Below are positions 2,030 through 22,700 of a stretch of 32,000 bases of DNA, piece after piece. The stretch comes from Kiritimatiellia bacterium (lineage in GTDB: Bacteria; Verrucomicrobiota; Kiritimatiellia; SLAD01), in NCBI GenBank assembly GCA_007134735.1, contig SLKG01000037.1, positions 65,286 through 97,285 on the forward strand. The letters are read 5' to 3'. The notes below the pieces were generated by a model, which was not told the origin of the DNA, did not search any database, and worked only from the letters and a program-made list of their open reading frames with translations. Made by a program: the position numbers and the translations under genes. Numbering within the stretch: the stretch's first letter is position 1; every line of letters starts with the position of its first letter.

Positions 2030-2058
2030 AAGCTAAATCCATGCGTGTGCGGCGTCAA
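2030..2058 (-). promoter_or_regulatory. Candidate sigma70-like promoter for the DUF2723 gene
   Basis: Minus strand reads TTGACG (2058..2053), a 17-nt spacer, then TAGCTT (2035..2030). It lies about 75 nt upstream of ATG 1956 in the 157-nt gap after the UbiA gene. Motif match only. Confidence 0.25.
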
Positions 2059-2113
2059 GCGATACCCCTTGCCTTCCCCGGTTTGGATGCCGCGGGGCGT
2101 CCATTTGTTCACA

Positions 2114-3771: not shown

Positions 3772-3861
3772 TCCGGTAGCACTTTAGGGGACACGGCGAA
3801 AAAAACAAGCCGATGTTGTTTTGAATCGATCCATGGCGTATGATACGTGCGGCAGTGTATT

Positions 3862-7641: not shown

Positions 7642-7831
7642 AATGATCCTTTCAACTCGATTTCAGTTCGATCACGGTGGTTACGGCGGGATCATAATAG
7701 AAGGTTTCCGGGCGGTTGTCGATAGGGGAGAACCCGGGGTGGCGGTAGCCCGCGGGGCGAGGCCCCGACCTTTTCCCGGACGGTGTTTCGCGGGCTTGCA
7801 GAAGGGCCCGTACAATTGATACGGTACAATC

Positions 7832-10225
7832 ATGGCGGCAAAGAAACAGGGCGGACACTCCGGGTGGCAGGATGCATGGGGCATCTTATGCCTGGCGCTT
7901 GCCTTACTGCTGTTTCTCAGTCTGATATCCTACGATTCCGGGGACGTATCGGTGATTGCGTATCCGTCCAATCAACCCACCCTCAACTTCATAGGGCCGA
8001 CCGGCGCCTGGTTGGCGTTCATTTTGTTCATGGGGCTGGGCGTGGGCGGATACCTGGTGCCGGTGGTGGTGGCCGGCCTGGGCTTTCTGTTGTTGTTCGT
8101 GCGGGAAAGGCGGATCTGGCCCCGATGCGTCTGGATGCTGGTGGTGCTGACGTCGCTGATCGCGCTGGCCGAGCTCCGGTCGGACGTATGGAACGGAATC
8201 ACCTCCGGACTCAACATCGAATGGACGGGCGGCGTGCTGGGGTACCTGTTGGTGCAGGAAACACTGATCCGTTTTGTGGGGAGGGTGGGGACGGCCATCC
8301 TGGCGGTTTCGGGTTTGCTGGTGGGCGTGTTTTACCTGGCCGAAATCCACCCGCTGTCCGTGATCCGGAAACTGTCCGAGTGGGGAACGATCCTGTACGG
8401 ATGGACGACCACGAAACTGGAAGAACGGCGCGATCGTCGCGAACAGTTGATGCGGGAGGAACGCGAGATTGCGAAACGCCGGCGACGCCTGGAAGAAGCC
8501 GTGAGCAAACGCGAGAAATCCGTGGCCGCGGCCCGGAGCCGGAGTGCGCGCGAAGCGGCCGAGCCGGACGCCCGGGAGCCGTCGGAATTGCCGATCGAGC
8601 CGGAACCGGAAACCGGCCGGGATCAACCCCTTCCGGACGAGCCCCTCAAGGCGCCCCGGCCGGCGCCGCGCCGCCCCAAACCCGCGGAGACGGCGACCGT
8701 TTCCGCCGCGCCCGTGGCCGCGGCCGCCGATACGGATTACCGGTTACCGCCCCTGGATTTGCTGGATGATGCCGCCGCGGCTCGCCCGCGCGAAATCCAG
8801 GAGGATCACCAGGCCGCCGGCACGATCTTAAAGGAAACACTGGCCGAATTCGGCATAGAAACGGAAGTGACCAATGTGGAGCGTGGTCCCGTGGTGACCC
8901 GCTACGAATTATTGCCCGCGCCGGGCGTTCGCGTGGAACGCATCACCGGGCTCAGCAACAATATCGCCCTGGTGATGAAAGCCGAAAGTGTGCGCGTACA
9001 GGCGCCCATTCCCGGAAAAGGCGTGGTGGGCATCGAAGTGCCCAATACGCTTTCGACGTTCGTCTATCTGCGGGAAATGATGGAGAGCCGTGTCTGGCAG
9101 GGAACCCGGTGCGCCCTGCCGTTGGCGCTCGGAAAAGACGTGGCCGGAAAAGAGCTCATTGCCGACCTGGCGGATATGCCGCACATGCTCATTGCCGGGG
9201 CGACCGGGTCGGGCAAAACAGTCTGCATGAATTCGATTCTGGCCGGCCTGCTCATGTCCCGCAGCCCCGCCGATATGCGGTTGATGCTGATCGATCCGAA
9301 GATCGTGGAATTCTCCGCCTATGAGCGGTTGCCGCACCTGGTGGTTCCGGTGATTACGGACGCCAAGAAGGTGGGCCTCGGCCTGCGCTGGGCCATCACG
9401 GAAATGGAAAAGCGATACAAGCTGTTTGCCAAGGTCGGTGTGCGCAACATCAAGGCGTACAACAGCCGGCCGATCGTGAAGCAGACGGATTTATTTGAAT
9501 CGGACCGGGATACAGCGGAAGACGAAAAACAGCCGCCGGATCGTCTGCCTTACCTGGTCATTATTGTCGACGAGCTGGCGGATCTGATGCTGAACGCGCA
9601 GGCGGAGATCGAAAATTCCATCGCGCGACTCGCCCAATTGTCACGAGCCGTCGGCATTCATATGATCCTGGCGACGCAACGGCCGTCGGTTAATGTGATT
9701 ACCGGGACCATCAAGGCGAACTTTCCCGCGCGCCTGGCCTTTCAAGTGGCCCAGAAGGTGGATAGCCGCACCATTCTGGATGCCGCGGGCGCCGACAAGC
9801 TGCTGGGCAAGGGCGATCTGCTGTTCCTGCCGCCCGGCAGCAGCAAACTGATCCGCGCGCAGGGCACGATGACGACCGACAATGAGATACGCCGGATCGT
9901 TGAATATATCCGGTCACAGGCCGAACCGCGGTACGAGCAAACCATTCGCGAAAAGATGGAGAGCAAGACGGCCATGATTCCGGAAGCGGAGGAAGACGAT
10001 GAGCTGCTCGAGGCGGCGATTGAGATCATTCGCCAGACCCGGCGCGCGTCCACCTCGTCTTTGCAGCGCCGGTTGCGTATTGGATATACGCGGGCGGCCC
10101 GGCTGATGGATCTTTTGGAGGAACGAGGTGTTGTGGGGCCGCCCCAGGGATCCGATCCGCGGGAAATTCTCATCGATTTGGACGGGGAAATTCCGCAGAA
10201 TGAGACGGTGGAAGAGGAGCGCTGA
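7832..10225 (+). CDS. ftsK: DNA translocase FtsK/SpoIIIE
   Basis: N-terminal TM helices and a charged/Pro-rich linker. Motor domain has Walker A in LIAGATGSGKTV and Walker B in YLVIIVDELADL. The gamma winged-helix is STSSLQRRLRIGYTRAARLMDLLEERGVVGP. Confidence 0.95.
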   Translation: MAAKKQGGHSGWQDAWGILCLALALLLFLSLISYDSGDVSVIAYPSNQPTLNFIGPTGAWLAFILFMGLGVGGYLVPVVVAGLGFLLLFVRERRIWPRCVWMLVVLTSLIALAELRSDVWNGITSGLNIEWTGGVLGYLLVQETLIRFVGRVGTAILAVSGLLVGVFYLAEIHPLSVIRKLSEWGTILYGWTTTKLEERRDRREQLMREEREIAKRRRRLEEAVSKREKSVAAARSRSAREAAEPDAREPSELPIEPEPETGRDQPLPDEPLKAPRPAPRRPKPAETATVSAAPVAAAADTDYRLPPLDLLDDAAAARPREIQEDHQAAGTILKETLAEFGIETEVTNVERGPVVTRYELLPAPGVRVERITGLSNNIALVMKAESVRVQAPIPGKGVVGIEVPNTLSTFVYLREMMESRVWQGTRCALPLALGKDVAGKELIADLADMPHMLIAGATGSGKTVCMNSILAGLLMSRSPADMRLMLIDPKIVEFSAYERLPHLVVPVITDAKKVGLGLRWAITEMEKRYKLFAKVGVRNIKAYNSRPIVKQTDLFESDRDTAEDEKQPPDRLPYLVIIVDELADLMLNAQAEIENSIARLAQLSRAVGIHMILATQRPSVNVITGTIKANFPARLAFQVAQKVDSRTILDAAGADKLLGKGDLLFLPPGSSKLIRAQGTMTTDNEIRRIVEYIRSQAEPRYEQTIREKMESKTAMIPEAEEDDELLEAAIEIIRQTRRASTSSLQRRLRIGYTRAARLMDLLEERGVVGPPQGSDPREILIDLDGEIPQNETVEEER

Positions 10226-10815
10226 TGGAATCACTGGGACACACACTGAAAAGCACACGCGAGCAGAAACGGATCAGTGCGTCGGATGCGGCCCGGAGTA
10301 CGCGGATCAAGGTGCAGCATATCGAGGCCATCGAGCGGGACGATTTCAGTCAAATTGCCGCGCCTGCCTATGCCAAGGGATTCATTAAAATATACGCGGA
10401 ATACCTGGGCCTCGATCCCGAACCGTTGATCAAGGAATATCTCGAAAAACACGCCCCGAAGGAACGCCCCCCCCTGTTGGAGGAGGAACCGGAGGAAAGA
10501 CCGGGGCGCACGTGGACAAGGCCGTCGATTCCCTGGCGGGAAATCTGGGAACGGGTGCGTGCGCTGTATGGGGCCATCAACTGGTCCGCATTCAAACGTT
10601 GGCCGTGGCCGAAACGGCCGCCGCGCGTGATGGCCCTGTACGTGGCCATCGCCGTGTTCTTGCTCCTGGTGCTGATGGGGATAACGCGGTTTGTGCGCCG
10701 GGAAAGGCCCGACGTGGAAGAGAGGCCCGTCCGGCCGGTGCCGGAAGCGGAGTATCCTCTGATTCGTGACGTGCCGGACCCCTATCTGGAAAAGAAACAT
10801 GAATCTACCGAATAA
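10225..10815 (+). CDS. RodZ-like helix-turn-helix membrane protein (short periplasmic tail)
   Basis: N-terminal HTH (LKSTREQKRISASDAARSTRIKVQHIEAIERDDF...AKGFIKIYAEYLGLD) followed by a single TM helix (MALYVAIAVFLLLVLMGI). The start overlaps the ftsK stop (TGATG). It sits directly upstream of pgsA, as rodZ (ymfM) does in Bacillus. Confidence 0.65.
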   Translation: MESLGHTLKSTREQKRISASDAARSTRIKVQHIEAIERDDFSQIAAPAYAKGFIKIYAEYLGLDPEPLIKEYLEKHAPKERPPLLEEEPEERPGRTWTRPSIPWREIWERVRALYGAINWSAFKRWPWPKRPPRVMALYVAIAVFLLLVLMGITRFVRRERPDVEERPVRPVPEAEYPLIRDVPDPYLEKKHESTE

Positions 10816-11386
10816 ATTGACGTTGGCCCGGCTGGTGCTGGTGGCGCTGCTGCTCGTGTTGTTGACGGTTCCGTTTCCGTATGCGATGAGCCTGGCCCTG
10901 CTGGTGTTTATCGTGGCCAGCGTATCCGATTACCTGGACGGATATCTGGCGCGGCGCGTATACGGCGAGTCCGCTTTCGGCCGGCTGATGGATCCGCTTG
11001 CGGATAAGGTCATGGTATGCGCCGCGTTCGTGAGTTTTGTCGATCTGGGTCTCGTCCCCGCCTATATCGTGGTCATCATTATTTCCCGGGAATTCCTGGT
11101 GACCGGATTACGCCTTTTGGCCGTGGAAAAAAGAGAAATCATTCCGGCCGGCAAATGGGGGAAACACAAAACGGTCTGGCAGATCGCGGCAATTATCGTC
11201 ATCCTTCTCGGCCTGGCCGTCCGCCACGATATCCTGGGAGATGCGGACGCGGCCCTGTTGCGTGACTACGATCTGGCATTCGAACATATCGCGTATGCCG
11301 TTTCCATCGCGGTGGCCCTGATCACCGTCGGTTCCGGTTATCTCTATTTCATGGAGAACAGGGAACTCATCAGGCGGAATTTATGA
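10799..11386 (+). CDS. pgsA: CDP-diacylglycerol--glycerol-3-phosphate 3-phosphatidyltransferase
   Basis: CDP-alcohol phosphatidyltransferase motif D-x2-DG-x2-AR-x8-G-x3-D-x3-D is present in DYLDGYLARRVYGESAFGRLMDPLADK. The N-terminus MNLPNKLTLAR is typical. ATG 10799 is preferred over the track's GTG 10766. It overlaps the rodZ-like gene by 17 nt. Confidence 0.9.
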   Translation: MNLPNKLTLARLVLVALLLVLLTVPFPYAMSLALLVFIVASVSDYLDGYLARRVYGESAFGRLMDPLADKVMVCAAFVSFVDLGLVPAYIVVIIISREFLVTGLRLLAVEKREIIPAGKWGKHKTVWQIAAIIVILLGLAVRHDILGDADAALLRDYDLAFEHIAYAVSIAVALITVGSGYLYFMENRELIRRNL

Positions 11387-11412
11387 CGGAGCCCCGCTTC
11401 ACGGGCGCCGGC

Positions 11413-12294
11413 CTATGAGCCGGAACCGGGGGCCGGGGGTTGCTCCGAGGGATCCTGCGTGACCCGGACGGGGAAGGGGGGCGTTTCCGATCCGCTGTAC
11501 ACGGTCAGATGCGGGAAGGCGATCTCGATGCCCTCGGCGTTGAAACGGGCCTGGATATCCTTCATGATCGAGTTCTTCAGATTCAGGAAATCCTGTTTTG
11601 CGAACCACACGCCCAGCATTAATTCCAGCGCGGAAGTTCCAAAGTCCTTGAAGATGATGAGGGGACGCGGTTCGTCGAGCGAATAGGGGTTTTGATCGGC
11701 GATCTCGGTAAGGATTTCCATCACGCGTCCGGCGTCTTCCTTGTAGGCGATGCCGATGTCGATATCCATGCGGCGAATCGGGAATCGTGAAATATTGATC
11801 ACCTGCGACTTGATCAGCGTCTCGTTGGGCATCCGCACAAACCGGTTGTCCGGTGTGCGCAATTTCACGGAGAGCAGGTCGATGGACAAGACAAAGCCGA
11901 GGGTGTCTCCGACCTTGATCATTTCGCCCGCTTCAAAAGGACGTTCCCAGATCAGGAAAAGACCACTGATGATATTGGATAGGCTGGTCTGTGACGCGAA
12001 TCCGATCGCAACGCCGATGATGCCGGCCGCCCCGAGAATGGCGGTCAGCCGGAAGCCGAGGTTCTGAAGGATCATGACCACAATCAGAGCGGTCCCGAAA
12101 TAATACACGCCTTTGCGAATCAGTATGCCCGCTTGTTCGGTCATGCGCGCGCGGGCCAGGCGGCCGGTCATGGACGCCGTGATATGGACCAGCGGCAGAC
12201 CGATCACCAGGAGAAGGGCGCTGCGCACCAGCGGAAGCATCCGGGCGCCCATCCAACCATTTTGTACGACCAGTTCTATGGATGAAGGTTCCAT
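11413..12294 (-). CDS. Small-conductance mechanosensitive channel (MscS family)
   Basis: Three TM helices followed by the MscS beta-domain: FEAGEMIKVGDTLGFVLSIDLLSVKLRTPDNRFVRMPNETLIKSQVINISR. Confidence 0.9.
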   Translation of the reverse strand: MEPSSIELVVQNGWMGARMLPLVRSALLLVIGLPLVHITASMTGRLARARMTEQAGILIRKGVYYFGTALIVVMILQNLGFRLTAILGAAGIIGVAIGFASQTSLSNIISGLFLIWERPFEAGEMIKVGDTLGFVLSIDLLSVKLRTPDNRFVRMPNETLIKSQVINISRFPIRRMDIDIGIAYKEDAGRVMEILTEIADQNPYSLDEPRPLIIFKDFGTSALELMLGVWFAKQDFLNLKNSIMKDIQARFNAEGIEIAFPHLTVYSGSETPPFPVRVTQDPSEQPPAPGSGS

Positions 12295-12297
12295 GAC

Positions 12298-13095
12298 TTA
12301 CATGCGGATGAAGGATTTCAAGTCGTCGATACTCTTTTGAATGCGTCCCTTCGGAAGCGGTTCCCGCGCCTCCGAAATCAGGCGGGCCTTCGGGCTTGCG
12401 GGAGGGGGGGCGTCCCCGTAATGCGTTCGGCTTGTTTTCGAATTGCCCTGGTAGGTCACGTCCACCTGGCTGGTCCACAGCCGGTCCTTGTCCTGGTACA
12501 GATTGAGGTGGGGGGCGTGGATGCAGAGCCTCTGGAATTCAACGGCCTCCGGCGCCTGGTTTTTTATGTGAATGGGGCACACCGCCATGTGCGGGCGTTT
12601 GCGAATCGTGCGGCGGTTTCGGCGTGCCGTCGTGCGAAGCGAATAGCACAGGGTCCCGTCCGTCGGGGTGCCGAACCATGAGTTGGAAAGGATCACCGTC
12701 GGTTCCGTGAACAGGGCGGAATCCATGTCTTGCCCCGTAAGTAAACGCAACCAGATGGGGATGCTGATAAAAAACAGCAAATCGCTCCCGGGCGGGAAGA
12801 GCAGTGGCGAATCCGGTCGGGCGACCACGGCCCGGTCCGGGGTCAGGGGCTTGAGCGCGAGCGTCCGTGAATCATCGGCGGCCGCCCATCGTGTCCATGT
12901 GGCCCCGTCGGGTTTGGCCTCCGTTTTCATCATGACCAGGGAATCGTCCTGGGGTGCCCGCTCGATCGCGGTCTGCCATTCGTCTTCCGAACGCTGGATC
13001 CACAGTTTGAAAGGACCGATCTGGCCGTGCAGACACGCTCCGTCGGCGATCTCAACCGGATCCCACGCGGATATGTTTTGTTGGGTCAGGGTCAC
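12298..13095 (-). CDS. Hypothetical protein (no motif I recognise)
   Basis: 265-codon ORF with normal amino-acid composition. It has a GTG start with GGAAGG 8 nt upstream. Its stop is 3 nt before the MscS ATG, so the two are probably co-transcribed. There is no signal peptide or TM segment. Confidence 0.6.
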   Translation of the reverse strand: MTLTQQNISAWDPVEIADGACLHGQIGPFKLWIQRSEDEWQTAIERAPQDDSLVMMKTEAKPDGATWTRWAAADDSRTLALKPLTPDRAVVARPDSPLLFPPGSDLLFFISIPIWLRLLTGQDMDSALFTEPTVILSNSWFGTPTDGTLCYSLRTTARRNRRTIRKRPHMAVCPIHIKNQAPEAVEFQRLCIHAPHLNLYQDKDRLWTSQVDVTYQGNSKTSRTHYGDAPPPASPKARLISEAREPLPKGRIQKSIDDLKSFIRM

Positions 13096-13171
13096 GTGTG
13101 CAACCTTCCGCTTGTCTTCGACTGTCGAATCTACCTGCGCGTATCAGCGGCGTCAATGGAAATGGGGCGCG

Positions 13172-13238
13172 GGAAAAGCCGGGCTGTATCAATAGTCTGC
13201 ACGGACCGTATGGCCGGCGGCTTATGATACAGCCCCGG
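13172..13238 (-). terminator. Possible intrinsic terminator after the OMP gene
   Basis: Minus strand reads CCGGGGCTGTATCA, a 33-nt loop, then TGATACAGCCCGG, followed by CTTTTCC. The stem is 13 bp with one bulge. The loop is large, so confidence is modest. Confidence 0.35.
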
Positions 13239-13261
13239 TGTTGCCGGTCTTGGATGCGGAT

Positions 13262-13942
13262 CTAGAACTGGTATCGCGCGCCGATACTGATGAACAGGTC
13301 GTCGATAAGCGCCAATTCCCCGTAATACGAGACGTTGTGGTTGTGCCAGTAGATCACGCCGCCCGCAAGGGCCAGTTCCACGTCGCTGTCGCTGTCACTG
13401 AATCGTTCTCGTCGCGTCTCCGGCTCTGGAATGGCCGGAAACGTCATGGTTCTCGTAATGGTCGAATCATAATACATATAGCTCAATCCGGCAAAACCGT
13501 ATACTGTAATCACATCCAGATCCTTACTCCCTAATGCGCCGACGTTGAGCGACCAGAAATCCGTCTCGCTCTTCCACGATCCCATGGCATGCCGGCCCGA
13601 ATCATCCCAGCGGGATAGCCCGAACGCGCCGCGTATGGCCAGGTCGAAGGGGATGTCGTAGATCGGAAGCCGGTATTGAGACCCCAGCTGAAGGAATGGT
13701 TCGATGTCCCCCGAATCAGGGTCGATAAAGCCGCCGCCGATGAACAACGCCAGGTCGTCAATCGGGCCGTAGGTAAAACGGCCGGCGTACAGGTTGACGT
13801 CGCCTTCCAGCGTGATGCCGCCTCCGAAACGTATCAGGCCGGCGTCCGTGTTGGCGTCATCGGCGATCGGCTGGCCGAGTATGGCCATGGCGGATAGGGT
13901 CGTGCCCAGCAGAATAACCACGGTCGGTATGAACTTCTTCAT
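13262..13942 (-). CDS. Outer-membrane beta-barrel protein
   Basis: Signal peptide MKKFIPTVVILLGTTLSAMA, alternating Gly/aromatic beta-strand pattern, and the C-terminal OMP signature GARYQF. AAGGAG lies 8 nt upstream of ATG 13942. The track's ATG 13948 is only 2 nt from the SD. Confidence 0.8.
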   Translation of the reverse strand: MKKFIPTVVILLGTTLSAMAILGQPIADDANTDAGLIRFGGGITLEGDVNLYAGRFTYGPIDDLALFIGGGFIDPDSGDIEPFLQLGSQYRLPIYDIPFDLAIRGAFGLSRWDDSGRHAMGSWKSETDFWSLNVGALGSKDLDVITVYGFAGLSYMYYDSTITRTMTFPAIPEPETRRERFSDSDSDVELALAGGVIYWHNHNVSYYGELALIDDLFISIGARYQF

Positions 13943-14014
13943 GATCATTTCTCCTTCATGTTTTGCGATAACCCCCTCGTGGAGCTACTTTTTAGATCTT
14001 TTCGTATAAATAGT

Positions 14015-15874
14015 TCAATCCGTCAGTCCTTCCAGCCAGATCATCCATTGGGCCACGTCACTGCCGTATGGTATGCCTGATATCTGTTCCAAGGCCTGGG
14101 ATGCGGAATGCCGAACCCTTGCGTCCGGGTCTTCAAGGAGAAGGTTGATCAACGGTTCTGCCGCCTGCAGGCTGCCTGTTTTCCCAAGTGCTTCAGCGGC
14201 GCGCAACCGGACCCAGCGATTATCATCGTCCAGGCTTGAAATCAATTCAGCGGCCGCCAGCTCTCCCAGGTTCCCCAATGCTTCGATGGCGGCATTTCGA
14301 ACGCCGGCGTGCCGGTCTTCCAGGGCGGCAATCAACGGCGGTACGGCGCGGATATCGCCCACTCGGCCCAGTGCCTCCGCCGCGTATTGCCGGACCCTCC
14401 GGTGCCGATCGTCAACCGCGGAAATCAAGGACTGTATGGCCCGTTCATCTCCGATTCTTCCCAGCGCCTCGGCGGCATATTGCCGAACTCCGGCATCATC
14501 ATCCTCGAGCGCGGAAATGAGTTGTTCTACCGCGCGTACCGCGCCCATTGTTCCCAGTGCCTCGGCCGCCCGTTCCCGAATATCCGAATCGGGGTCATCC
14601 AAGGCCAGGCTCAGTCGCTCGATTGATTCTTCACGTCGCCTTTCTTCTTCCAGTGCTCTTTCAATAGCCTCCTCGGCCCGGGCGATTTGACCGGCGGCGT
14701 CCGTCCGTTCCGGGTTCAGATCCAGCAGCTGCCCGAAGGTCTGTATGGCGTCCTCGTACTCCCCGGCCCCGTATTGTTCCATGCCGGCGGCAAACAAAGC
14801 GTCTTCCTGTTCCTTTTTTTTCCGGGCTTCCATTTGTTCTCTGAATGCCGCCTTCGCTGAAGTCATCTGTTCGGCCGCATCCGCTCGATCCGGATTCAGA
14901 TCCAGCACCCGCCCGAAGAACTCCATGGCCCCCTCGTAATCCTCTTCGGTGTAACGTTCCATGCCGTCGGAAAATAACCGGTCCTTTTTCGCCTTCTGTT
15001 CGCGCTCCTCAATGGCCGCTTTCGCCGAAGTCATCTGTTCGGCCGCATCGGATCGATCCGGGTTAAGGATGAGCACCCGCTCAAAGAGCTCCATGGCTTT
15101 CTCGTAATCCTCTTCGGCGTAGCGCTCCATGCCATCGGCGAACAACGCGTTTTCATTCTCTACCGGATCCGCCCAATAGTGTAACAGGGCCCATCCGATG
15201 CCCAGGCTCAACGCGATCAATGCCGCCAGCGCCATGCCGGCATTGACCATTTTGCGTTTGCGCATCCTGTGACGTATGGTGTCGGGGACCGTGGAGCGAT
15301 CCGGGGGCGGAGGAGGCAGTCGCGGTCTCTTTACGCCTCGTTCGTCGAGCACTTTGATAATTTCCCGCTCGACTCCGTCGAGTATTTCCTTGCGGATATA
15401 TCGCCATCCCTTTTCGCTGTCGATAAAATCGATCAGCGGAGTCGGTTTGCCGGGCAGGATTGTGCGGAAGGAAACAAATTCTATTTTTTCCCAGGCACAG
15501 GGCTCGACAAGAATGGATACCAGTTTGAGTTCATTATTTTTGACCCGCTCGCAAATGCGCGGAAATTCTACCGTCTGGATGAAGTCGGAGTTGAGGAACG
15601 CGCTGCTGATCAGTAGTATGGCGATATCGGCCTGATCGATTTCCCGCTCGATGCGCTCCTTGAAATTCTGGCTCGGGGTCAGATCTTTCGTGTCATACCA
15701 GAACACCGTGTGGTAATAGCGCTTGAAAGATTTGGCCAGCCAGGGAATGAGCGCGAATTCGCTTTCGTCATCGGGCACCCACCGCTTGCCCTCGTCCCTG
15801 TATCCCAGATAACGGCATTCCTCGCGGGCATAACTCACGAAAATGCGTATTTCCTGCGCTGTTTCCTCGGTCAT
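14015..15874 (-). CDS. TIR-domain membrane protein with TPR-like and HEAT repeats
   Basis: - aa 8-175: TIR-like (IRIFVSYAREE..., DIAILLISSAFLNSDFIQTVEFPRI).
- aa 200-234: basic cluster RHRMRKRK followed by a TM helix.
- aa 244-415: three TPR-like units of 56-60 aa.
- aa 431-600: five to six 31-aa HEAT/PBS-lyase-type repeats (VRQYAAEALGRIGDERAIQSLISAL).
- Start: GGAGG lies 7 nt upstream of the ATG. Confidence 0.85.
   Translation of the reverse strand: MTEETAQEIRIFVSYAREECRYLGYRDEGKRWVPDDESEFALIPWLAKSFKRYYHTVFWYDTKDLTPSQNFKERIEREIDQADIAILLISSAFLNSDFIQTVEFPRICERVKNNELKLVSILVEPCAWEKIEFVSFRTILPGKPTPLIDFIDSEKGWRYIRKEILDGVEREIIKVLDERGVKRPRLPPPPPDRSTVPDTIRHRMRKRKMVNAGMALAALIALSLGIGWALLHYWADPVENENALFADGMERYAEEDYEKAMELFERVLILNPDRSDAAEQMTSAKAAIEEREQKAKKDRLFSDGMERYTEEDYEGAMEFFGRVLDLNPDRADAAEQMTSAKAAFREQMEARKKKEQEDALFAAGMEQYGAGEYEDAIQTFGQLLDLNPERTDAAGQIARAEEAIERALEEERRREESIERLSLALDDPDSDIRERAAEALGTMGAVRAVEQLISALEDDDAGVRQYAAEALGRIGDERAIQSLISAVDDRHRRVRQYAAEALGRVGDIRAVPPLIAALEDRHAGVRNAAIEALGNLGELAAAELISSLDDDNRWVRLRAAEALGKTGSLQAAEPLINLLLEDPDARVRHSASQALEQISGIPYGSDVAQWMIWLEGLTD
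14075..14584 (-). repeat. Intragenic 93-nt periodic repeats encoding HEAT-like units
   Basis: 31-aa periodicity: DIRERAAEALGTMG..., VRQYAAEALGRIGD..., VRQYAAEALGRVGD..., VRNAAIEALGNLGE..., VRLRAAEALGKTGS..., VRHSASQALEQISG. These are coding repeats, not a CRISPR array. Confidence 0.75.
14630..15145 (-). repeat. Intragenic tandem triplication (units of about 168-180 nt) encoding the TPR-like units
   Basis: Long near-identical nucleotide blocks. For example, ctcgtaatcctcttcggcgtagcgctccatgccatcgg (about 15100) matches ctcgtaatcctcttcggtgtaacgttccatgccgtcgg (about 14930). Likewise gaagtcatctgttcggccgcatc occurs at about 15030 and about 14860. At protein level the units read LFADGMERYAEEDYEKAMELF / LFSDGMERYTEEDYEGAMEFF / LFAAGMEQYGAGEYEDAIQTF. 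Confidence 0.8.
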
Positions 15875-16038
15875 GGCCGCCCCTCCGGGGAACGTCCCCC
15901 GTCCTTACTGCGTCAGGCGGATTAACCCCGCCTGCAAGCGATTTGCACTACTCGTCTTTATTGCCTCCGCCAAAGCTGATCATGAATGAGAAACGGGGAA
16001 GAAGCAAGCAAAAGCCGTGGTGTATTTTTTGAAGTAGA

Positions 16039-16455
16039 TCATGCTTCATTTTGCATGAAATTTGTAGCATGGCGCCGCATGAAGTCCCCCACTGTTCCGC
16101 ATAAGAGGCGGTTCCCCATGTCCGGAAACGCCACCCATTCACCGGCGTCATGTTCTTCGCTTAACCGGAAATGGCCGCCGGTGATGCGGGCGTTCATGCA
16201 GAGGAGGACGACGTGTGCGGAAGGCATTTCGAATTCGGTGGCGCCGGCGAAGCCGATGACCTCAATTTCGTAGCCGGTTTCCTCGAGGGTTTCACGGAGA
16301 AGCGCCGTGACGAAATCCTCCCCGTGATCGACCTTGCCACCGGGCCATTCCCAGCATCCGGCGAAGCGTTTGTTGATGTTTGATCTTCGTAACAGCAGGC
16401 TTTGCCGGGCATCGTTCTGGATGATGGCCTTGACGGCCAGCCAATACGATTTCAT
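16039..16455 (-). CDS. NUDIX hydrolase
   Basis: Complete Nudix box G-x5-E-x7-RE-x2-EE-x-G is present in GGKVDHGEDFVTALLRETLEETGY. The ATG 16455..16453 lies 1 nt after the TGA (16459..16457) of the upstream gene. An AAAGG SD sits inside that gene's 3' end. Confidence 0.9.
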   Translation of the reverse strand: MKSYWLAVKAIIQNDARQSLLLRRSNINKRFAGCWEWPGGKVDHGEDFVTALLRETLEETGYEIEVIGFAGATEFEMPSAHVVLLCMNARITGGHFRLSEEHDAGEWVAFPDMGNRLLCGTVGDFMRRHATNFMQNEA

Positions 16456-16456
16456 G

Positions 16457-19033
16457 TCAACCTTTCTTGTGTTGCTTGGTTGAGGTGGGTTTGCGCGCCC
16501 GCTTTTCGGATCGCCTCACTTCCAGGCCCGCCCGGGCCAGAATTTTCGGAAATTCCTTGATCGCATTTCGGTCGTAATGCCGAACGTCATCGAGGCCGGG
16601 ATCGGACCAGGGGATCAGGAAGGGATGCGTCTTGTTTGCGTCGTTGCGGATCTGCCCGTAACGCCAGCCGGCCCGTATGCGTTCCACGTTCCAGCGGCCG
16701 TGTTCCATTTCGGCCATCCGCTCGATTTCTTCCTCGGTGAACACGATGTCCGCCCTTGGCCGTGCGGCCGGCCGGACGATGAATCCGCAGTTTTCCAGGA
16801 TCCGTCTCGCGTACCGGGCTTGTTCCCGGTTGGCCTGGCGGTAGGTTTCGTCCATCGCTTCCCATGGGCGCATGTTGGCGGGGAGGCGATGGGCGCTTTC
16901 CTCCACATAGCGGGCGTGAAAGGCCTGAGCCATCCGTTCCGTGGTGTTGGTGTCCAGCTCGCCGTCTCCCGGTCTGAGCAGGGCGTGGAAAGAGGCCCGG
17001 TCCATGGGAAACGGCATCAGATTAGGCACCCCGGTCCAAAGCGAATCCCGGTTGAGCGCGTCGGCGCTTCCTCCTGATCCCTGCGCGCTGACGATGCGGG
17101 CGCCCAGCGCCAGGGCTACCCGGTATTCCACCGCGCTGATGGGGCCGCCGCCGAATCCGATGCAGATCACGTCTTTTGGGGCGATGCCCTTGTCGAATAG
17201 GTCCTGCCAGCTTTTGAGGACCTGGTCCGGCGAGAAACCGGCCTCGCCGCAGGGCACGAGACGGTCATAGCGTTTGTCTTTCACTGCGTCGTGCGGCAGT
17301 TGGTCCGGGATATAGCCGATCAGTTCAAACCGTTTCTTTTTCGAGCGGTGGAGATCGGCCGCCGTTTTGCCTGCGCATCCCGGCACACCGGATTTGGTTC
17401 CACCGGAAATGACCAACCCGTCAAAAGTGGTTAATGCCTCGCTGATCAACGGCCGGATGATTCGGGTTATCTTTTTATCCAGCGATGCGGCGCCGCCGGC
17501 CAGGACGATGGCTTTGGGCGGCAGGGCGCCCAGCGCATCCGTATCCGCGCCGGCCCGGTCCGCCAGATCCAGTAGATCCAGCACCCAGCGATGATCCGCC
17601 GGGGCCTCCTCGCCCACATGCAGTCGCTCCACCCATTCCCGTTCCACCGCGAGCGCGTCCGTCGGAGCGCAATGAACGCCGGCCAGACAATAACGAATGC
17701 CCCGCGCATAATAACCCAGCGCATCCAAGGGTTGATCGAGCAACAGATGGAGGCGGCCGGCCGTAAACCAGGCTCGGGGCAGTTCGATCCCGGCTTCCGC
17801 ATGGCTTTGGCAGGTACGGATGCCCCCCCGAAGGGCGGTACGCATGCCCGCCGGCCGGGCATGGTCGCGTCGGCTGTAGATTTCGAAACCGAGCATATCG
17901 GCGAGGTAGTAGGGGTTTTCCGGTTCATGTTCGTGGGCCTGTCGGTGGTGTTGACGGGCGGCGGGCCATTCACTCCGCAGGGGTTCCAGCGCCCAGCCCA
18001 GCCGCGAGAGTGCGCGCGCATGCAGGCTTTCGCGTTTTCGCAGGTGCGGCACGAATGGGCATCCGCGTTCCCGGCATAGGGCCTCGGCTTTCTCCAATAA
18101 CGCCCGGCCGCGCCGGTATTCCTTCGATTTCGGTTTCCCACGATAAATCTTGCAGAGCGCGAAACCCAGATCCTGAAGCATTTCACAGCGGTTGGCGCCG
18201 GATGCCTTTTCATACGGCGCCAGTGTTCGCTCGACGGCCTTGTAATCACCGCATGCGGCGTGGAGCCGGCCCAGCGTCAACGCCAGGACAGGGCGTTTGG
18301 CCGTGTTGGGTTCATGATCCAGAATCAATTGTTGTACCTGGATTTCCCGCAGCACGGCATCCCGGGTTGCGTAGGATGCGTAATTGGCCAGCATGCCGTC
18401 AATGTCCTGCGCCATACGGTTATAGTTGCGGTCGCCTTCCTCCATCAGGGCGGCGAGCAGGTTGCCGGTCCGCTTCACCTCGGAGGACAGTTTGAGTGGA
18501 TTCTTGTAAATCCGGTCATGTAACGTGTCGGCCCAGGCATGTTGAAGCCAGGTGCGGACTTGAATTTCCGCCCGCCGGTTACCGATCGCTTGGATTTCAT
18601 TGGGCTTGAACCCGAGGGCAGCCGCCTTTTTCGGTATGAGCCGCACGATATAGTGCATGTCGCGATATCCGAACCGGTCGTCTCCCAGATTCAACCCTTT
18701 TTCGTCGGCCTCGAGGATTTCGAAATTCGACTCGATAAACGTGCGCACGGCCCGGACTTGTTCCAAGGTTTGTACGATCACCCGCGCTCCGCATAAATCG
18801 GTCAGATCGTGTACCGGATCCTTGTATTTTTGATGTTTCCGCACCGCCTTTTCGGCGAAACTTGATATCGTTTTGTCCCGTGCTTGAACCAGCGCATCGG
18901 GAATTGAAGCCGCGCAGGCGTGTTCCAGTATTCGGCGCAGAGCAACGGCGTGGGTGGCGTATCGCGGTTGTTCCCCGGCATACAATTTGATTTGACGCCG
19001 GTGTTCTGTCGGAGTGATACCCTTGGATGCCAT
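16457..19033 (-). CDS. RelA/SpoT-domain nucleotide pyrophosphokinase fused to TPR-like linker, SLOG (LOG/LSDAT-like) sensor and RyR-type C-terminal module
   Basis: - aa 25-180: RelA/SpoT synthetase motifs ARDKTISSFAEKAVRK, DLTDLCGARVIV, GYRDMHYIVRL and AEIQVRTWLQHAWADTLHDRIYK.
- aa 230-500: helical TPR-like region.
- aa 505-665: Rossmannoid SLOG-like motifs IVLAGGAAS, VISGGTKSGVPGCAG, LIGYIP, ICIGFGGGPISAVEY and QGSGGSADAL.
- aa 698-835: RyR-like region (MRPWEAMDETYRQANREQARY and EMEHGRWNVERIRAGWRYG..KTHPFLIPWSD).
- Start: I chose ATG 19033, which has AAAGGAGGGA 7 nt upstream. The track's 19156 start is a TTG. Confidence 0.85.
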   Translation of the reverse strand: MASKGITPTEHRRQIKLYAGEQPRYATHAVALRRILEHACAASIPDALVQARDKTISSFAEKAVRKHQKYKDPVHDLTDLCGARVIVQTLEQVRAVRTFIESNFEILEADEKGLNLGDDRFGYRDMHYIVRLIPKKAAALGFKPNEIQAIGNRRAEIQVRTWLQHAWADTLHDRIYKNPLKLSSEVKRTGNLLAALMEEGDRNYNRMAQDIDGMLANYASYATRDAVLREIQVQQLILDHEPNTAKRPVLALTLGRLHAACGDYKAVERTLAPYEKASGANRCEMLQDLGFALCKIYRGKPKSKEYRRGRALLEKAEALCRERGCPFVPHLRKRESLHARALSRLGWALEPLRSEWPAARQHHRQAHEHEPENPYYLADMLGFEIYSRRDHARPAGMRTALRGGIRTCQSHAEAGIELPRAWFTAGRLHLLLDQPLDALGYYARGIRYCLAGVHCAPTDALAVEREWVERLHVGEEAPADHRWVLDLLDLADRAGADTDALGALPPKAIVLAGGAASLDKKITRIIRPLISEALTTFDGLVISGGTKSGVPGCAGKTAADLHRSKKKRFELIGYIPDQLPHDAVKDKRYDRLVPCGEAGFSPDQVLKSWQDLFDKGIAPKDVICIGFGGGPISAVEYRVALALGARIVSAQGSGGSADALNRDSLWTGVPNLMPFPMDRASFHALLRPGDGELDTNTTERMAQAFHARYVEESAHRLPANMRPWEAMDETYRQANREQARYARRILENCGFIVRPAARPRADIVFTEEEIERMAEMEHGRWNVERIRAGWRYGQIRNDANKTHPFLIPWSDPGLDDVRHYDRNAIKEFPKILARAGLEVRRSEKRARKPTSTKQHKKG

Positions 19034-19127
19034 GAGTCGTTCCCTCCTTTCGAAGTGCCGTGCGAGCCATGTTGAGGGCGGGAAGAGTGTGATTTCGAGG
19101 CACCCCTCCGCCACGCAGAACGGTGAA

Positions 19128-19156
19128 ATCGTACCGGAAATATCCGGGGAAGACAA
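19128..19156 (-). promoter_or_regulatory. Candidate promoter for the RelA/SpoT-NUDIX operon
   Basis: Minus strand reads TTGTCT (19156..19151), a 17-nt spacer, then TACGAT (19133..19128), about 95 nt upstream of ATG 19033. Motif match only. Confidence 0.25.
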
Positions 19157-19277
19157 GCGGTCCCTGTCGCCGGTTCATTTCGTGCGTGGAGCATGACGCC
19201 GAAAAAAAATGTTGCATGGAATTCCCAATGATCTATCTTCTTTCCCGTCCTATGGGCGGAAGACCGCCGTTTCGGAC

Positions 19278-19305
19278 TTGCATCCGGAAGAAAAAACGTT
19301 ACATA
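19278..19305 (+). promoter_or_regulatory. Candidate promoter for the tRNA gene
   Basis: TTGCAT (19278..19283), a 16-nt spacer, then TACATA (19300..19305), about 16 nt upstream of the mature tRNA 5' end. The -10 register is ambiguous because of the run catatac. Confidence 0.3.
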
Positions 19306-19321
19306 TACGGTAGGCACTCAT

Positions 19322-19398
<77 letters not shown>

Positions 19399-19406
19399 AT
19401 TTAGAA

Positions 19407-19445
19407 GCAAGAAAGCCCTGTGTTTACAGGGCTTTCTTGCTTTTG
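19407..19445 (+). terminator. Rho-independent terminator after the tRNA
   Basis: Perfect 14-bp stem gcaagaaagccctg / cagggctttcttgc with a 6-nt loop tgttta, followed by TTTTG. Confidence 0.85.
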
Positions 19446-19705
19446 TGATTCTCCTCGCTCACACCCCCGCCTTCAAGTCGGAGATCCCAAACTCCCGGCA
19501 GAAGGGCTCATTTCGTCCGCCCACGTGTCACGGATACGTGAATAGGTTATTGTTCGCCATCCGCCACTTCGCTGTGATTCAACGAATATGACCCTTCAAC
19601 ATTCAAAACAATATCCCCCGTCAAAAGCACATCCACGGAAGCGATCTCGCCATTATCATAAAATGCAAATCCACGTTGTTGCATGAACCCCAGTGCGTGC
19701 CCTTC

Positions 19706-22700
19706 CTATTGAGGAATGAAGCGAAGCCGGATAAATAGGGGTTCGGAAAAAACCCATTCGGGTATTCGTATGCGGATTTCTTCGGTTTGATCGTCCCCCG
19801 TGGGGACCGGCGGATCCCGGTGGTAGACCGGCAAGGTTTCCAAGGCAACCCACGCGTCGTCCAGCTCCCGCGCTACCTCGACTTGATATTCCACACCCCG
19901 CTCCTCATGTATGAGCCGCCGATAGGTGTACGTGAGGTATTCCGTTTCCCCGTCCGTCATTATTCCCATCCGGGGCAGGGCGGGCTCGATCGCGTCGGTA
20001 CGATTCAGCCCGAGCGCATATTTGGCCAGATTGGCCCAGCCGTCATCATCCGGCATCGCATCCGGACCGCTGATGGCCGGGTCCTCCAGTTCCTCCGGAT
20101 CGAAATTATCGGACAACCATCGTTCATGGGGCAATTGCCCCCCTTGAAACCGCACCCGCATGATCCGGCCGGTGACCGTGCCCTCCACAAAATCCGCCAC
20201 CGCCCTTGCGGTATCGACCGTGAAGGTCAACGGTCCGGTGTATTCCGAATAGCGCCGGCCGTTGAATCCGACCGTCCCGTCGGAATCACGCACGTAATAC
20301 ACAGCATGCGCGCCCTTCATGTTCGCAAGAAAATCCGTGTCCTGGTCCGTAAAGAACCCGCCGCGGAATACATCATCCGGATGGAAGGTTTCCACGTCGA
20401 AATACAGGGCCACCCGATTGCCCGCATTGAAGTCATGTGCAAACGGATCCGCCCCATTGAGTCTCAGGAGCGCGTTGCCGCTTTCCACCGTCTGCGCGTA
20501 GGCCGGGGATCCCGGACGGCCGAATCCGAACGCGTACCAGAGTCCGTTAATGGAATCCGCTGTAAGAATGGACGATTCGAGAGCCACCTCACCTGAGCCG
20601 CTCAACAGCCCGGCCGTGCCGCTGCCCGACACATGGGTGCCGGGTTCAAGGATCACCGGCGCGGTCAGGTCGCCGTGTAGATGCACGGCGCCGGCTTCTA
20701 TGCGAAGCGTTCCCGTGAATGTATCGCCGCTTCCCGCCAGTCGCAGGATCCCGTCACCGGTTTTTGCGATCTCGTGCGCGCCTTTCAGCGCCCCCGAAAC
20801 GGCGAGGGTGTTGTTCGATCCCTCCACGTGCCATCCGCTGTCTCCCCGGACAATAACGGGTCCTGCGATGCGGGCGTAATGGGTTCCCGGTCCCGGCTCA
20901 TACCGCAGGGCGCCGCCGGAATCCGGTCCTCTCCCGGTCAGCTTCAACGGCCCACCGAAGGAATGGATCCGGGGATCATTTCCGGAAACCAGGCGCAATT
21001 GGGCCCCGGCTTTAACCAAAATCTGCGTTGATGCCGAAGGTGTGGCCGGTTCCGTTATTTGCAATACGCCGCTTTCGATCCGGGTTTCTCCCGTATAGGT
21101 CTTGCCCGGTCCAGTCAACGACGCCGTTCCGGGTCCGTCCTTGATCAGGGCCCCCGGCCCGCTCCAGCTTTCGCGCAACCGCAGTCCTCCGTATTCCGCA
21201 TGACCGCCCGTCGACTGCACTGTGAGACGCACGTCGGATTCCAGGAAAACCCCGCCCTGAACCCGGAATTCCACAAATCCCGTTCCTTCATCGGTCACGG
21301 TGACCGCCGCTTCATGGTTCGTGGAGGCAAAGTGCAGAGACGCGTGGCCGCCGGTATCCTGAATGCGATTGCGTCCGCCGTTTCCCGGTCTGTGTACGAT
21401 CAGGTGGCCGATCGTAATGTGATCGTTCAATTTCACGTCACGGCGATCGTTCGCGGGTTGGCGTATCACGGCCACGGTCGATGTGCCGTCGGGATAGGTA
21501 TCCGTGGTCCAATTGATCGCTTCGGCCCACGTGGCATCGTCCTGGGCCAACAACACGGGGATGTCGGAACCATTATCCGGAAGGTGGGCGATCGGATTCC
21601 CGTCGGCGGTCATGGTACCCGGCAGGCCCTCCTCAAAGACCGACGCATCCAAGAGCGCGCCGTCCGCGAGCGAGCGGACTTCGATGCGCCGTACCCCCGA
21701 GGACAGCGCGTTGGGGATCAACGCGCCCCAGAACCGCGGGTTTGTCGCGACCAGTTCCTCGTAGAAAAGCGCATAGCGTTCGTCGATGTCGCTCCCTGTC
21801 ATCTCGATGGGCGTGGCGGCCAGAGGACGGGAATGGCCCTGCTCGTCCTCGTACAGAACGACGAAATGACCGGGATCGAATTCCGATTTCCCCACAAGGC
21901 CCGTGGCCTCGTGGGCGCCCTCTCCGAATTCAAGGATCTCCACGCCGCCGGTTGTCGTCAGTAGGTGATGATAGGCCGTGCCGTCCGCGCCGTCGTTCAG
22001 CAGGATCCGCATGTTCAACGTGTTCCCGGGATCGAAGCGCCGGTTGCCCGTCGGTTCCGCGATAAACCATCCTTCGTACGTGCCGTCCTCATCCGTTACA
22101 AACGTCCCGTGCCGCTCGTCCAGGTCATCCGGCATGAAGCGCGGCGCATCCGTGTTGCGAATGAACGCATCGCCGTTTGTCTTTACGAAGATCATGTTGC
22201 CCGCACCGTCCTGATCGGGCGGATCGTCGAATGCCGCAACCCGGTTTCCATAGCGATAGATCGTGTTCGTTTCCAGCCCTTCCAATTTCAACCGATAGGC
22301 ATAGGGCACGCGGTTCAGGTTGCTGCCGTCCCGGTCCTGTTCCCCCTGGATAAAACGGGGCAACAGAATCTCCGTGAGGCGGACCGCGGTGAACCGGTTG
22401 CCGGCCGCCGGCTCGGTGTCTTCCGCTTCCGCCGACAACTGGAAGGCGCCCGCCCCGTCACCGATGTGCAGATCCCCGAAGAACGCAATCCCGTTGACGG
22501 CTTGTACCGAGCGAGTTCCCGAAAGCGTCCCGTCGCCGATAAGGGTGAGTTCGACGATACCTGCGAAATTGGTTACGATCATGCCTGCGGCATCTACGGC
22601 GCGAACGACGACCAGGCCCAACGGTTCCCCGCTCTGAACCACCGACGGATACGTGTCGAACAGTAGGTGGGCCACCGGTCCGGCCGGTGCGCACGTGACG

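Follow-up and report, generated by a model that had tools for sequence, protein, structure and literature searches.

The window analysed here, a stretch of 32,000 nucleotides from a contig of a Kiritimatiellia bacterium (SLKG01000037.1, positions 65,286 to 97,285), encodes a protein in which a TIR domain is followed by a predicted membrane helix and by an array of TPR-like and HEAT repeats (hereafter the TIR protein). Its gene lies on the same strand as, and 164 base pairs (bp) downstream of, a gene pair for a NUDIX hydrolase and for a protein that combines a RelA/SpoT-like nucleotidyltransferase with SLOG and RyR domains (hereafter the RelA/SpoT-SLOG-RyR protein; Table 1). We propose that they belong to a Thoeris-like pathway, in which the membrane-anchored TIR protein would act as sensor and signal synthase and the RelA/SpoT-SLOG-RyR protein as effector. 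To this reading, which draws on sequence comparison and structure prediction, we assign a probability of about 0.5. A signalling chain is the simplest reading of a TIR gene whose neighbours encode two types of domain that can receive TIR products (RyR and SLOG), an enzyme as output and a nucleotide-diphosphate hydrolase.

The TIR domain was recognised at several levels. Pfam TIR_2 matched residues 43–137 (E=2.3e-11, 44.7 bits versus a cut-off of 28), and the PADLOC model for ThsB1 matched the domain at 9e-14. The beta-A strand, IRIFVSYA, occupies residues 9–16, so that the domain begins at the N-terminus of the protein; an insert of 20 residues (~20–41) is shared with the closest relative, at locus L019. 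The AlphaFold model of residues 1–242 had a mean predicted local distance difference test (pLDDT) score of 83.6. In a Foldseek search with the TIR model the top 47 PDB matches were all TIR domains, mostly at probabilities of 0.96–1.0, and plant, bacterial and animal TIR structures were all matched at 1.0.

A preliminary description of this DNA, made from its letters without database searches, had guessed that the catalytic glutamate lies in FIQTVEFPRI. Alignment to AbTir and AtTIR found it there, as E103. In a profile-to-PDB alignment built from the N-terminal 242 residues and 14 homologues, the family motif SdFIqdvEL fell on KNW-TEYEL of AbTir and on SSWCLD-EL of AtTIR; E103 pairs with AbTir E208 and with the glutamate of the plant-TIR "EL", and F98 pairs with AbTir W204. 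AbTir E208 is the essential catalytic glutamate and W204 the aromatic residue needed for cyclisation of ADP-ribose (ADPR), a position at which tryptophan is preferred and the window protein has phenylalanine (bioRxiv 10.1101/2022.05.07.491051). E103 was invariant in a 15-sequence alignment (A1) and nearly invariant (≥90%) in a 67-sequence alignment (A5), and F98 was invariant among the closest seven sequences (A2). In SARM1, the counterpart of AbTir E208 is E642, the catalytic glutamate of the alpha-C helix. As E103 and F98 are both aligned and conserved and the TIR fold is modelled, we conclude that the TIR domain, judged by sequence, holds the catalytic machinery. The aromatic residue at F98 makes a cyclic ADPR (cADPR) isomer a plausible product.

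These residues bear on the idea that the TIR domain is a non-enzymatic adaptor and the whole protein an envelope scaffold, in which periplasmic TPR/HEAT repeats would be combined with TIR–TIR contacts in the cytoplasm and no nucleotide signal would be made. Such a scaffold would fit the weak NCBIfam similarity of the TPR units to the periplasmic or outer-membrane proteins YbgF, BamD and PilW, as well as the presence of an outer-membrane-like 228-amino-acid (aa) gene 66 bp downstream. However, a TIR domain serving only as an adaptor would not need a catalytic glutamate and an aromatic residue that are invariant or nearly so across the clade, the NCBIfam matches fall far under their cut-offs, and other loci lack an equivalent of the 228-aa gene. 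We consider an adaptor role highly improbable, the most so of the readings weighed here. Membership of the TIR protein in CBASS or Pycsar was also rejected, as no CD-NTase/cyclase, SAVED or cyclic-nucleotide-binding (cNMP-binding) domain was found in it or in 15 neighbouring open reading frames (ORFs); the PADLOC SAVED_TIR match is limited to the TIR part (residues 57–119).

Outside the TIR core, residues 209–234 (MVNAGMALAALIALSLGIGWALLHYW) form the sole strongly hydrophobic segment of the protein, with a Kyte-Doolittle maximum of 2.09 over 19 residues; the only other hydropathy window above 1.2 is a strand of the TIR core itself (81–102). The basic cluster RHRMRKRK fills residues 201–208. 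The 15 residues N-terminal to the helix include six K/R and one D/E, whereas the 15 residues C-terminal to it (ADPVENENALFADGM) include no K/R and four D/E. The scan of hydropathy and charge thus recovered both the basic cluster directly before the helix and the acidic ADPVENEN after it that had been pointed out beforehand. AlphaFold modelled one long helix over residues 199–234. A single hydrophobic segment directly after the TIR domain is also present in 28 of 63 close representatives (positions ~190–280), which argues that the helix of the window protein is not a chance feature; the C-terminal tails of these 28 range from 5 to 528 residues. Across 35 helix-bearing relatives, K and R sum to 154 on the N-terminal side of the helix versus 90 on the C-terminal side, with an excess on the N-terminal side in 27 of the 35. 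We conclude that the TIR protein is probably a single-pass protein with its N-terminus in the cytoplasm and its C-terminus outside (N-in/C-out), because the long N-terminal domain, which has no signal peptide, is followed by one helix, with a charge of +6 before it and −4 after it.

Other proteins speak to where such C-terminal parts can be placed. In a 566-aa relative at locus L012 the helix is followed by SBP_bac_3, a typical periplasmic solute-binding domain. Arrays of this kind can be exported, as an N-terminal signal-like hydrophobic segment is present in 16 of the 119 nearest HEAT arrays. Net charge per residue ranged from −0.04 to +0.03 in cytoplasmic proteins of the window and was −0.06 and −0.07 in two predicted exported proteins; of the window stretches examined, the C-terminal half of the TIR protein was the most acidic, at −0.10 (TIR domain, −0.04). 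This acidity fits exposure to soda-lake brine, within a small sample and for a kind of array that is generally acidic anyway.

Were the hydrophobic segment not membrane-spanning, the protein would be a soluble or peripheral cytoplasmic TIR-HEAT sensor, like the 970-aa paralogue at L012. HEAT_PBS arrays are indeed mostly cytoplasmic (103 of the 119 nearest relatives have no signal-like segment), and soluble TIR-HEAT, TIR-WD40 and TIR-FGE relatives exist. Against this stand the 26 uncharged residues of the segment, with the hydropathy and flanking charges given above, its single continuous helix in the AlphaFold model, a length too short for a re-entrant hairpin, and the equivalent segment in 44% of close representatives, where scores reach 3.2. 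A soluble protein is therefore very unlikely in our view.

Two observations count against an outward-facing array even if the helix spans the membrane. Relatives without the helix, and hence cytoplasmic, also carry HEAT, WD40 and FGE-sulfatase modules; the extracytoplasmic position of the HEAT array is therefore a prediction, though a well-supported one. In addition, the relative at L019 (2733-4307, 52% identity) has two Flg_new_2 repeats between TIR domain and helix, so that "after the TIR" is not always "outside". These Flg_new_2 repeats are InlB B-repeat-like and usually extracellular, and in L019 they fall on the predicted cytoplasmic side. A precedent exists for a single sensor type being placed in the cytoplasm or the periplasm according to its transmembrane segments (PMC10907252). 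Regarding the initial proposal of a cytoplasmic TIR domain with the repeats outside, the positive-inside bias was upheld (6 versus 0 basic residues here, and 27 of 35 relatives), and the outward array stays a prediction.

The part of the protein after the helix comprises 385 aa, without a cysteine and with a net charge of −39 (−0.12 per residue in the TPR-like region 242–418). Pfam TPR_1/TPR_2 matched residues 245–273 and 358–389, and HEAT_2 (1.6e-38) and HEAT_PBS (6.7e-29) spanned residues 421–600. The TPR-like units are ~59 aa each, start at residues 244, 300 and 360 and are 41–68% identical to one another; the HEAT repeats are six units of 31 aa over 424–609. No DNA-level tandem repeats were found in the TIR gene, the repeats being visible only at the protein level. 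AlphaFold modelled residues 200–619 as an all-helical solenoid (mean pLDDT 88), in which three helical hairpins linked by helices of 35–39 residues precede six HEAT hairpins. Its best Foldseek matches were artificial alphaRep binders (46–52% identity), which are consensus HEAT_PBS repeats, and the phycocyanin lyase CpcE/F was also matched. No other protein was found to combine the TPR triplet with the HEAT array, as the next-best matches of the C-terminal half cover the HEAT part alone. The order first read from the sequence (TIR domain, basic cluster, single helix, acidic stretch, TPR/HEAT repeats) is thus borne out by Pfam and hydropathy, as are the roughly 380 aa of TPR-like and HEAT-like repeats. 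The gene has a GGAGG Shine-Dalgarno sequence ~8 nt 5' of its ATG, and an identical 619-aa protein was found on seven contigs, all from samples of soda or salt lakes.

The TIR protein belongs to a large clade. An exhaustive profile search returned 38,752 representative clusters at 50% identity (E≤1e-3), with 4,124 at E≤1e-30; a word-indexed homologue search had yielded 15 relatives, at most 43% identical, and so badly underestimated the size of the clade. Two alignments of mixed membership (A3 and A4), in which HEAT proteins had been forced onto the TIR or TPR parts, were excluded from structure prediction. The closest representatives, which include one from a Lentisphaeraceae metagenome-assembled genome (MAG), share the N-terminal TIR motifs IFVSYSH, LIPWL, ILLISQ.F..S.FI...ELP.I and LPG.PTPLI. 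TIR_2 matched all 67 clade members of a census, in which the C-terminal modules were FGE-sulfatase (9 members), TPR (~6) and WD40 (5). Several modules occur both with and without the helix: HEAT in the window protein and, helix-less, in the 970-aa protein of L012; WD40 in L014 and L028 versus L033/L034 and P0150; FGE-sulfatase in L020 and P0149 versus L015 and L027. SBP_bac_3 was seen with the helix (L012, 566 aa) and not without it. Since the TIR domain is constant while the C-terminal modules differ, with and without a helix, we conclude from these sequences that the plan of the clade is a constant, predicted enzymatic TIR domain and an exchangeable C-terminal binding module, which a membrane helix may or may not separate. 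Such a plan suits the suggestion that the repeat array is the sensor and the TIR domain the output, and makes a receptor-like role plausible.

The clade also includes other arrangements. The two L012 proteins are tandem paralogues in a deltaproteobacterial MAG (7059-11689), a soluble TIR-HEAT protein and a TIR-helix-SBP_bac_3 protein, the latter gene being followed by one for a YkuD L,D-transpeptidase; they form a natural pair for comparing a cytoplasmic with a periplasmic module. P0136, P0142 and P0147 are proteins of 1,100–1,900 aa in which four to six TIR domains that match the family profile stand in tandem, and some of their N-termini are vWA-like. In L018 (1-10286), a Tubulin_2 domain fused to TIR_2 and a gene for NADAR (NAD/ADP-ribose-associated) lie near a member of the clade.

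We then considered the upstream pair. The RelA/SpoT-SLOG-RyR protein is 858 aa long from the ATG chosen by gene callers, the longest ORF extending to 19156. Pfam matched RelA_SpoT (3.2e-16, 60.1 bits versus a cut-off of 27), LSDAT_prok (8.7e-07) and RyR (PF02026; 2.9e-13, 50.3 bits versus a cut-off of 27.4). The nucleotidyltransferase domain, whose product may be ppGpp, ppApp or a modified tRNA, has the conserved synthetase motifs TDLCGARVIVQT, FGYRDMHY and AE.QVRTW.QHAWAD. The RyR part is a tandem pair, as in animal R12, of which the first repeat is degenerate; in the second, the four ligand-binding or catalytic residues known from phage RyDEP are all present (H, W at +3, H at +25 and D at +43). 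RyDEP acts through H75 and D117, with W78 and H100 contacting the ligand, and the RyR(R12) domain of phage proteins was reported in 2026 to bind or cleave 2'/3'cADPR (PMC13232231). The SLOG domain of ThsA binds 3'cADPR (bioRxiv 10.64898/2025.12.03.692087).

The family of the RelA/SpoT-SLOG-RyR protein comprises at least 405 clusters that are 51–74% identical over the full length (~850 aa). In 119 full-length relatives the RyR H/W/H/D positions, the SLOG glycine motifs and the RelA/SpoT synthetase motifs were at least 95% conserved. The few named sources are Ca. Erginobacter, Pirellulales, Acidobacteria and Bryobacteraceae. The NUDIX gene starts one base past the stop codon of the RelA/SpoT-SLOG-RyR gene and adjoins its homologue in six of the six contexts examined, and the two look like a seemingly undescribed two-gene unit in its own right. 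On these neighbour genes PADLOC returned only the candidate models PDC-S07 and PDC-S33. No paper on a prokaryotic combination of RelA/SpoT, RyR and SLOG was found in the searchable literature; older LSDAT surveys may describe the context. The LSDAT SLOG family was reportedly defined by Burroughs et al. in 2015.

To ask whether the proximity of TIR and RyR genes recurs, we collected 22 distinct loci of the TIR clade; RyR domains in them were sought with a profile made from these loci, and other domains with jackhmmer. RyR-domain ORFs lie within 10 kb of the TIR gene in seven of the 22 loci, the window included. A RyR domain and a RelA/SpoT-TPR-SLOG protein are near the TIR gene in L006. In L009, an RCK-like protein matches RyR weakly, and a 96-aa RyR protein is encoded directly after the TIR gene. 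L014 has a TIR-helix-WD40 gene, then genes for TrkA_N-RyR and RelA/SpoT-TPR-S-SLOG, the last of these being 34% identical to the window 858-aa protein over 696 residues. In L017 the start of the TIR gene shares 4 bp with a 96-aa RyR gene, a SLOG-RyR ORF is upstream of the TIR gene in L032, and a SLOG-RyR protein is encoded divergently ~1 kb from it in L034. The RyR-bearing loci are from unrelated backgrounds, Chloroflexia and Bacteroidales among them. By a rough reckoning, seven of 22 is far above chance because PF02026 is rare; the RelA/SpoT-SLOG-RyR family, for example, amounts to ~405 clusters among 5.8 billion. The TIR gene, first described by itself, is not that of a lone receptor: directly upstream of it lies the conserved pair of RelA/SpoT-SLOG-RyR and NUDIX genes, which would plausibly provide a reader, an effector and an eraser for a TIR signal.

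The search in the reverse direction gave a similar association, with a TIR or TIR-like gene within ~4 kb of the RelA/SpoT-SLOG-RyR and NUDIX genes in four of six contexts, again including the window. Near the RelA/SpoT-SLOG-RyR gene, L035 has a TIR domain of another family joined to a zinc ribbon, and L036 has DUF4062-STAND; L040 is a Thermoguttaceae island in which the clade's TIR-FGE gene also occurs, ~19 kb away. In the L037 context, SLATT_1 was matched faintly and an AAA-RyR protein is encoded. We conclude that the RelA/SpoT-SLOG-RyR and NUDIX genes are a stable core and that TIR proteins are frequent, not obligatory, companions, since NUDIX is present in six and TIR in four of the six contexts.

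The AAA-RyR protein represents a second RyR architecture of ~850–930 aa, with a weak AAA match and a C-terminal RyR domain (L034, 6495-9053, minus strand; L037, 5896-8685, minus strand). A SLOG-like region was detected in L034 only. This architecture adjoins a TIR-WD40 gene in L034 and the RelA/SpoT-SLOG-RyR gene in L037. L040 also has a Tubulin_2 gene (960-3956) near its RelA/SpoT-SLOG-RyR gene.

Several findings weigh against a Thoeris-like pathway. The closest relative of the RelA/SpoT-SLOG-RyR protein (74%, L038/L039) has the NUDIX gene and no TIR gene within 7 kb downstream, and 15 of the 22 TIR-clade loci have no RyR ORF, many of them on short contigs. Cross-phylum conservation of 51–74% in the RelA/SpoT-SLOG-RyR protein is unusual for an arms-race defence gene. 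The flanks of the window are housekeeping genes (FtsK, RmuC, ParA, Usp, MscS, phosphatidyltransferase) and not a defence island, PADLOC recognised no complete system in the window, and the locus was found only in DNA runs, from soda- and salt-lake samples, with zero RNA runs.

Some of the same evidence would suit a protein that works as sensor and effector on its own, its array sensing a cue and its TIR domain merely depleting nicotinamide adenine dinucleotide (NAD+) in abortive infection or growth arrest, with the RelA/SpoT-SLOG-RyR and NUDIX pair as an independent neighbour. TIR effectors deplete NAD+ in CBASS, Pycsar, SPARTA and Avs. The conserved catalytic glutamate agrees with such a role, as do the many clade members whose available DNA shows neither a RyR nor a SLOG gene, the RelA/SpoT-SLOG-RyR and NUDIX pairs without TIR in L038 and L037, and the 164-bp gap between the TIR and NUDIX genes; a survey of Thoeris sets lone TIRs apart as probable NAD+ depleters (bioRxiv 10.64898/2025.12.03.692087). 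Against an independent neighbour stand the recurrence of RyR genes in seven of 22 loci, in at least four phyla-level backgrounds and in some cases overlapping or adjacent, far above expectation for a rare domain, and the known binding of TIR products by both RyR and SLOG. We consider NAD+ depletion by the TIR protein alone possible rather than probable.

In the Thoeris-like pathway that we favour, the TIR protein would be a single-pass inner-membrane protein with a catalytically competent TIR domain in the cytoplasm and a TPR-like/HEAT solenoid predicted to be periplasmic. A ligand or an envelope event would bind the repeat array, and TIR domains, whose NADase sites form across two of them, would then cluster at the inner membrane face. 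The TIR domain would turn NAD+ into an ADPR-derived signal, plausibly the cADPR isomer suggested by F98, to be read by the tandem RyR(R12) repeats, the SLOG domain or both in the upstream-encoded protein. Signal binding would activate the RelA/SpoT-type nucleotidyltransferase, for alarmone synthesis or a toxSAS-like reaction, and lead to growth arrest or a stringent-like response. The NUDIX hydrolase, and possibly RyR as a glycosidase, would degrade the nucleotides and reset the system. We infer every step beyond the TIR domain having catalytic residues. A more specific version, an outside-in, immunity-like pathway, appears unlikely on present evidence: in it the periplasmic HEAT/TPR array would detect an envelope cue (phage adsorption or penetration, or envelope damage), a cADPR-type signal would act through RyR(R12) and SLOG on alarmone production by RelA/SpoT, and NUDIX would provide the reset.

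Comparison with known systems sets the Thoeris-like pathway in context. Thoeris TIR proteins are small and soluble and are believed to detect infection from within the cell. As in Thoeris (ThsB with the SIR2-SLOG protein ThsA), a TIR domain with a catalytic glutamate is encoded in the window beside a protein with SLOG and an enzymatic output. However, in the window the TIR domain continues into a membrane helix and a repeat array of 385 aa, a nucleotidyltransferase of the RelA/SpoT type is the candidate effector, RyR and NUDIX are added, and there is no defence island. Thoeris has the TIR gene in one operon with an effector that bears a signal-binding domain; the window genes lie on one strand, with the NUDIX gene and the 164-bp gap between the TIR gene and the SLOG/RyR gene. 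The contrast drawn in the preliminary description with ThsB-type TIRs therefore holds for architecture (helix and 385-aa array), whereas the logic is still Thoeris-like. A RelA/SpoT, alarmone or ppGpp effector is unmentioned among the 29 Thoeris configurations, types I-XI (bioRxiv 10.64898/2025.12.03.692087).

With phage RyDEP, or R12, the window RyR repeat shares its match to PF02026 and the H/W/H/D positions (PMC13232231). It differs in being chromosomal and host-encoded, in its fusion to SLOG and RelA/SpoT and in its tandem arrangement, like that of animal R12, and would be the host's own signal receptor or terminator and not a viral counter-defence; host RyR proteins of this kind are not discussed in the RyDEP paper (PMC13232231).

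Resemblances extend to animal receptors. Like Toll-like and interleukin-1 (IL-1) receptors, the TIR protein is predicted to be single-pass, with a solenoid-repeat ectodomain, a cytoplasmic TIR domain and an outside-in logic. Its TIR domain is N-terminal with a signal-anchor helix, whereas theirs is C-terminal in a type I protein; its ectodomain is TPR/HEAT, theirs leucine-rich repeat (LRR) or immunoglobulin (Ig); and it keeps the enzymatic glutamate, while the TIR domains of Toll-like receptors are classically regarded as adaptors. We regard the resemblance as a topological analogy only, with no orthology. The ADPR-gated TRPM2 has an N-terminal SLOG/MHR and a C-terminal NUDT9H, and the Pfam name LSDAT_prok means "SLOG in TRPM, prokaryote". 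The window likewise brings an LSDAT-family SLOG together with a NUDIX enzyme and a predicted ADPR-producing enzyme, but as separate proteins, with no channel and with a nucleotidyltransferase output.

Alarmone synthetases of the toxSAS and CapRel type have fused sensors and are accompanied by small alarmone hydrolases or protein antitoxins. An N-terminal RelA/SpoT domain with intact motifs, followed by regulatory domains, is common to them and the window protein, and the neighbouring hydrolase could neutralise the product; in the window the regulatory part is TPR-SLOG-RyR and the neighbour is NUDIX. Conflict systems of multicellular prokaryotes also join TIR to FGS (FGE-sulfatase), WD40 and TPR (PMC7159879, PMC10907252). 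Their sensors of one domain type, too, are predicted to be cytoplasmic or periplasmic according to transmembrane segments, and relatives of the TIR clade occur in STAND, TCAD9 and Tubulin_2 islands. The window differs in having no STAND/MoxR/vWA core and in its partner, the RelA/SpoT-SLOG-RyR protein with NUDIX.

If the Thoeris-like pathway is real, bacteria would pass information from the envelope or from outside the cell to TIR/NAD+ signalling with the topological logic of Toll-like receptors, and TIR signals would be tied to alarmone-type growth control, adding an unreported class of effector. The "own-side" use of RyR(R12) that has been missing would be its host-encoded form next to TIR genes. 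The locus would then offer a tractable bacterial model for the long-debated connection between cADPR and RyR. Under the more specific outside-in version, TIR/cADPR signalling would drive a stringent-type response, and there would be a prokaryotic antecedent for animal signalling from cADPR to RyR and from ADPR to TRPM2 (SLOG and NUDT9H). The three genes are short enough for direct cloning.

Table 1. Features of the TIR gene and its upstream neighbours, in positions of the window
Feature	Coordinates	Strand	Basis or remark
TIR gene, 619 aa: TIR - transmembrane helix - TPR-like - HEAT	14015..15874	(-)	ATG ORF, Pfam domains
TIR domain, residues ~8-178	15341..15853	(-)	Pfam TIR_2, PADLOC, AlphaFold, Foldseek
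F98 codon, aromatic position equivalent to AbTir W204	15581-15583	(-)	profile-to-PDB alignment
E103 codon, predicted catalytic glutamate	15566..15568	(-)	alignments to family and AbTir
Linker, residues 181-208, VKRPRLPPPPPDRSTVPDTIRHRMRKRK	15251..15334	(-)	proline-rich, net charge +8
Predicted transmembrane helix, residues 209-234	15173..15250	(-)	hydropathy, flanking charges, AlphaFold, relatives
Three TPR-like hairpins, residues 242-418	14621..15151	(-)	Pfam TPR_1/TPR_2, repeat comparison, AlphaFold, charge
Six HEAT_PBS / alphaRep-type repeats, residues 420-609	14048..14617	(-)	Pfam HEAT_2, HEAT_PBS, Foldseek
Spacer between NUDIX and TIR gene, 164 bp	15875..16038	(-)	no convincing promoter or terminator on this strand
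NUDIX hydrolase, 138 aa, intact Nudix box GGKVDHGEDFVTALLRETLEETG	16039..16455	(-)	Pfam NUDIX, 4e-18
RelA/SpoT-like nucleotidyltransferase - TPR - SLOG (LSDAT_prok) - tandem RyR (R12)	16457..19033	(-)	Pfam
Second RyR repeat, EMEHGRWNVERIRAGWRYGQIRNDANKTHPFLIPWSDPGLDDVRHYDRN	16514..16732	(-)	aligned to RyR1/2/3 R12 and PDB 3nrt

A promoter and terminator scan of 13000-19700 gave counts not above those of shuffled sequence, with nothing useful in the minus-strand intergenic regions. Integration of an island at the tRNA-Met gene (19322-19398, plus strand) was rejected: the cluster lies 5' of the tRNA, and a G+C content of 0.55–0.64 is unremarkable for the window. Related loci sit among STAND, TIR, TCAD9, Tubulin_2 and NADAR genes.

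Beyond the cluster, a 2,307-aa ORF (19706-26629, minus strand) with Lamin-tail, CHB_HEX_C and CotH kinase domains and PATR (autotransporter passenger) repeats likely encodes a giant surface protein. The 228-aa protein downstream of the TIR gene (13262-13948, minus strand) has an N-terminal signal-like segment, MIMKKFIPTVVILLGTTLSAMAILG, and zero Pfam or NCBIfam matches; its C-terminal ending, ...ARYQF, is typical of small outer-membrane beta-barrels. The giant surface protein and this outer-membrane-like gene together suggest that the source is a diderm of the Planctomycetota-Verrucomicrobiota-Chlamydiota (PVC) group. The downstream genes (228-aa outer-membrane-like and DUF432) were rejected as part of the unit, with no counterpart in any related locus. 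The DUF432 gene (12298-13095, minus strand) is directly upstream of that for an MscS-type mechanosensitive channel (11413-12294, minus strand), with a gap of 3 bp, and the two may be a functional pair.

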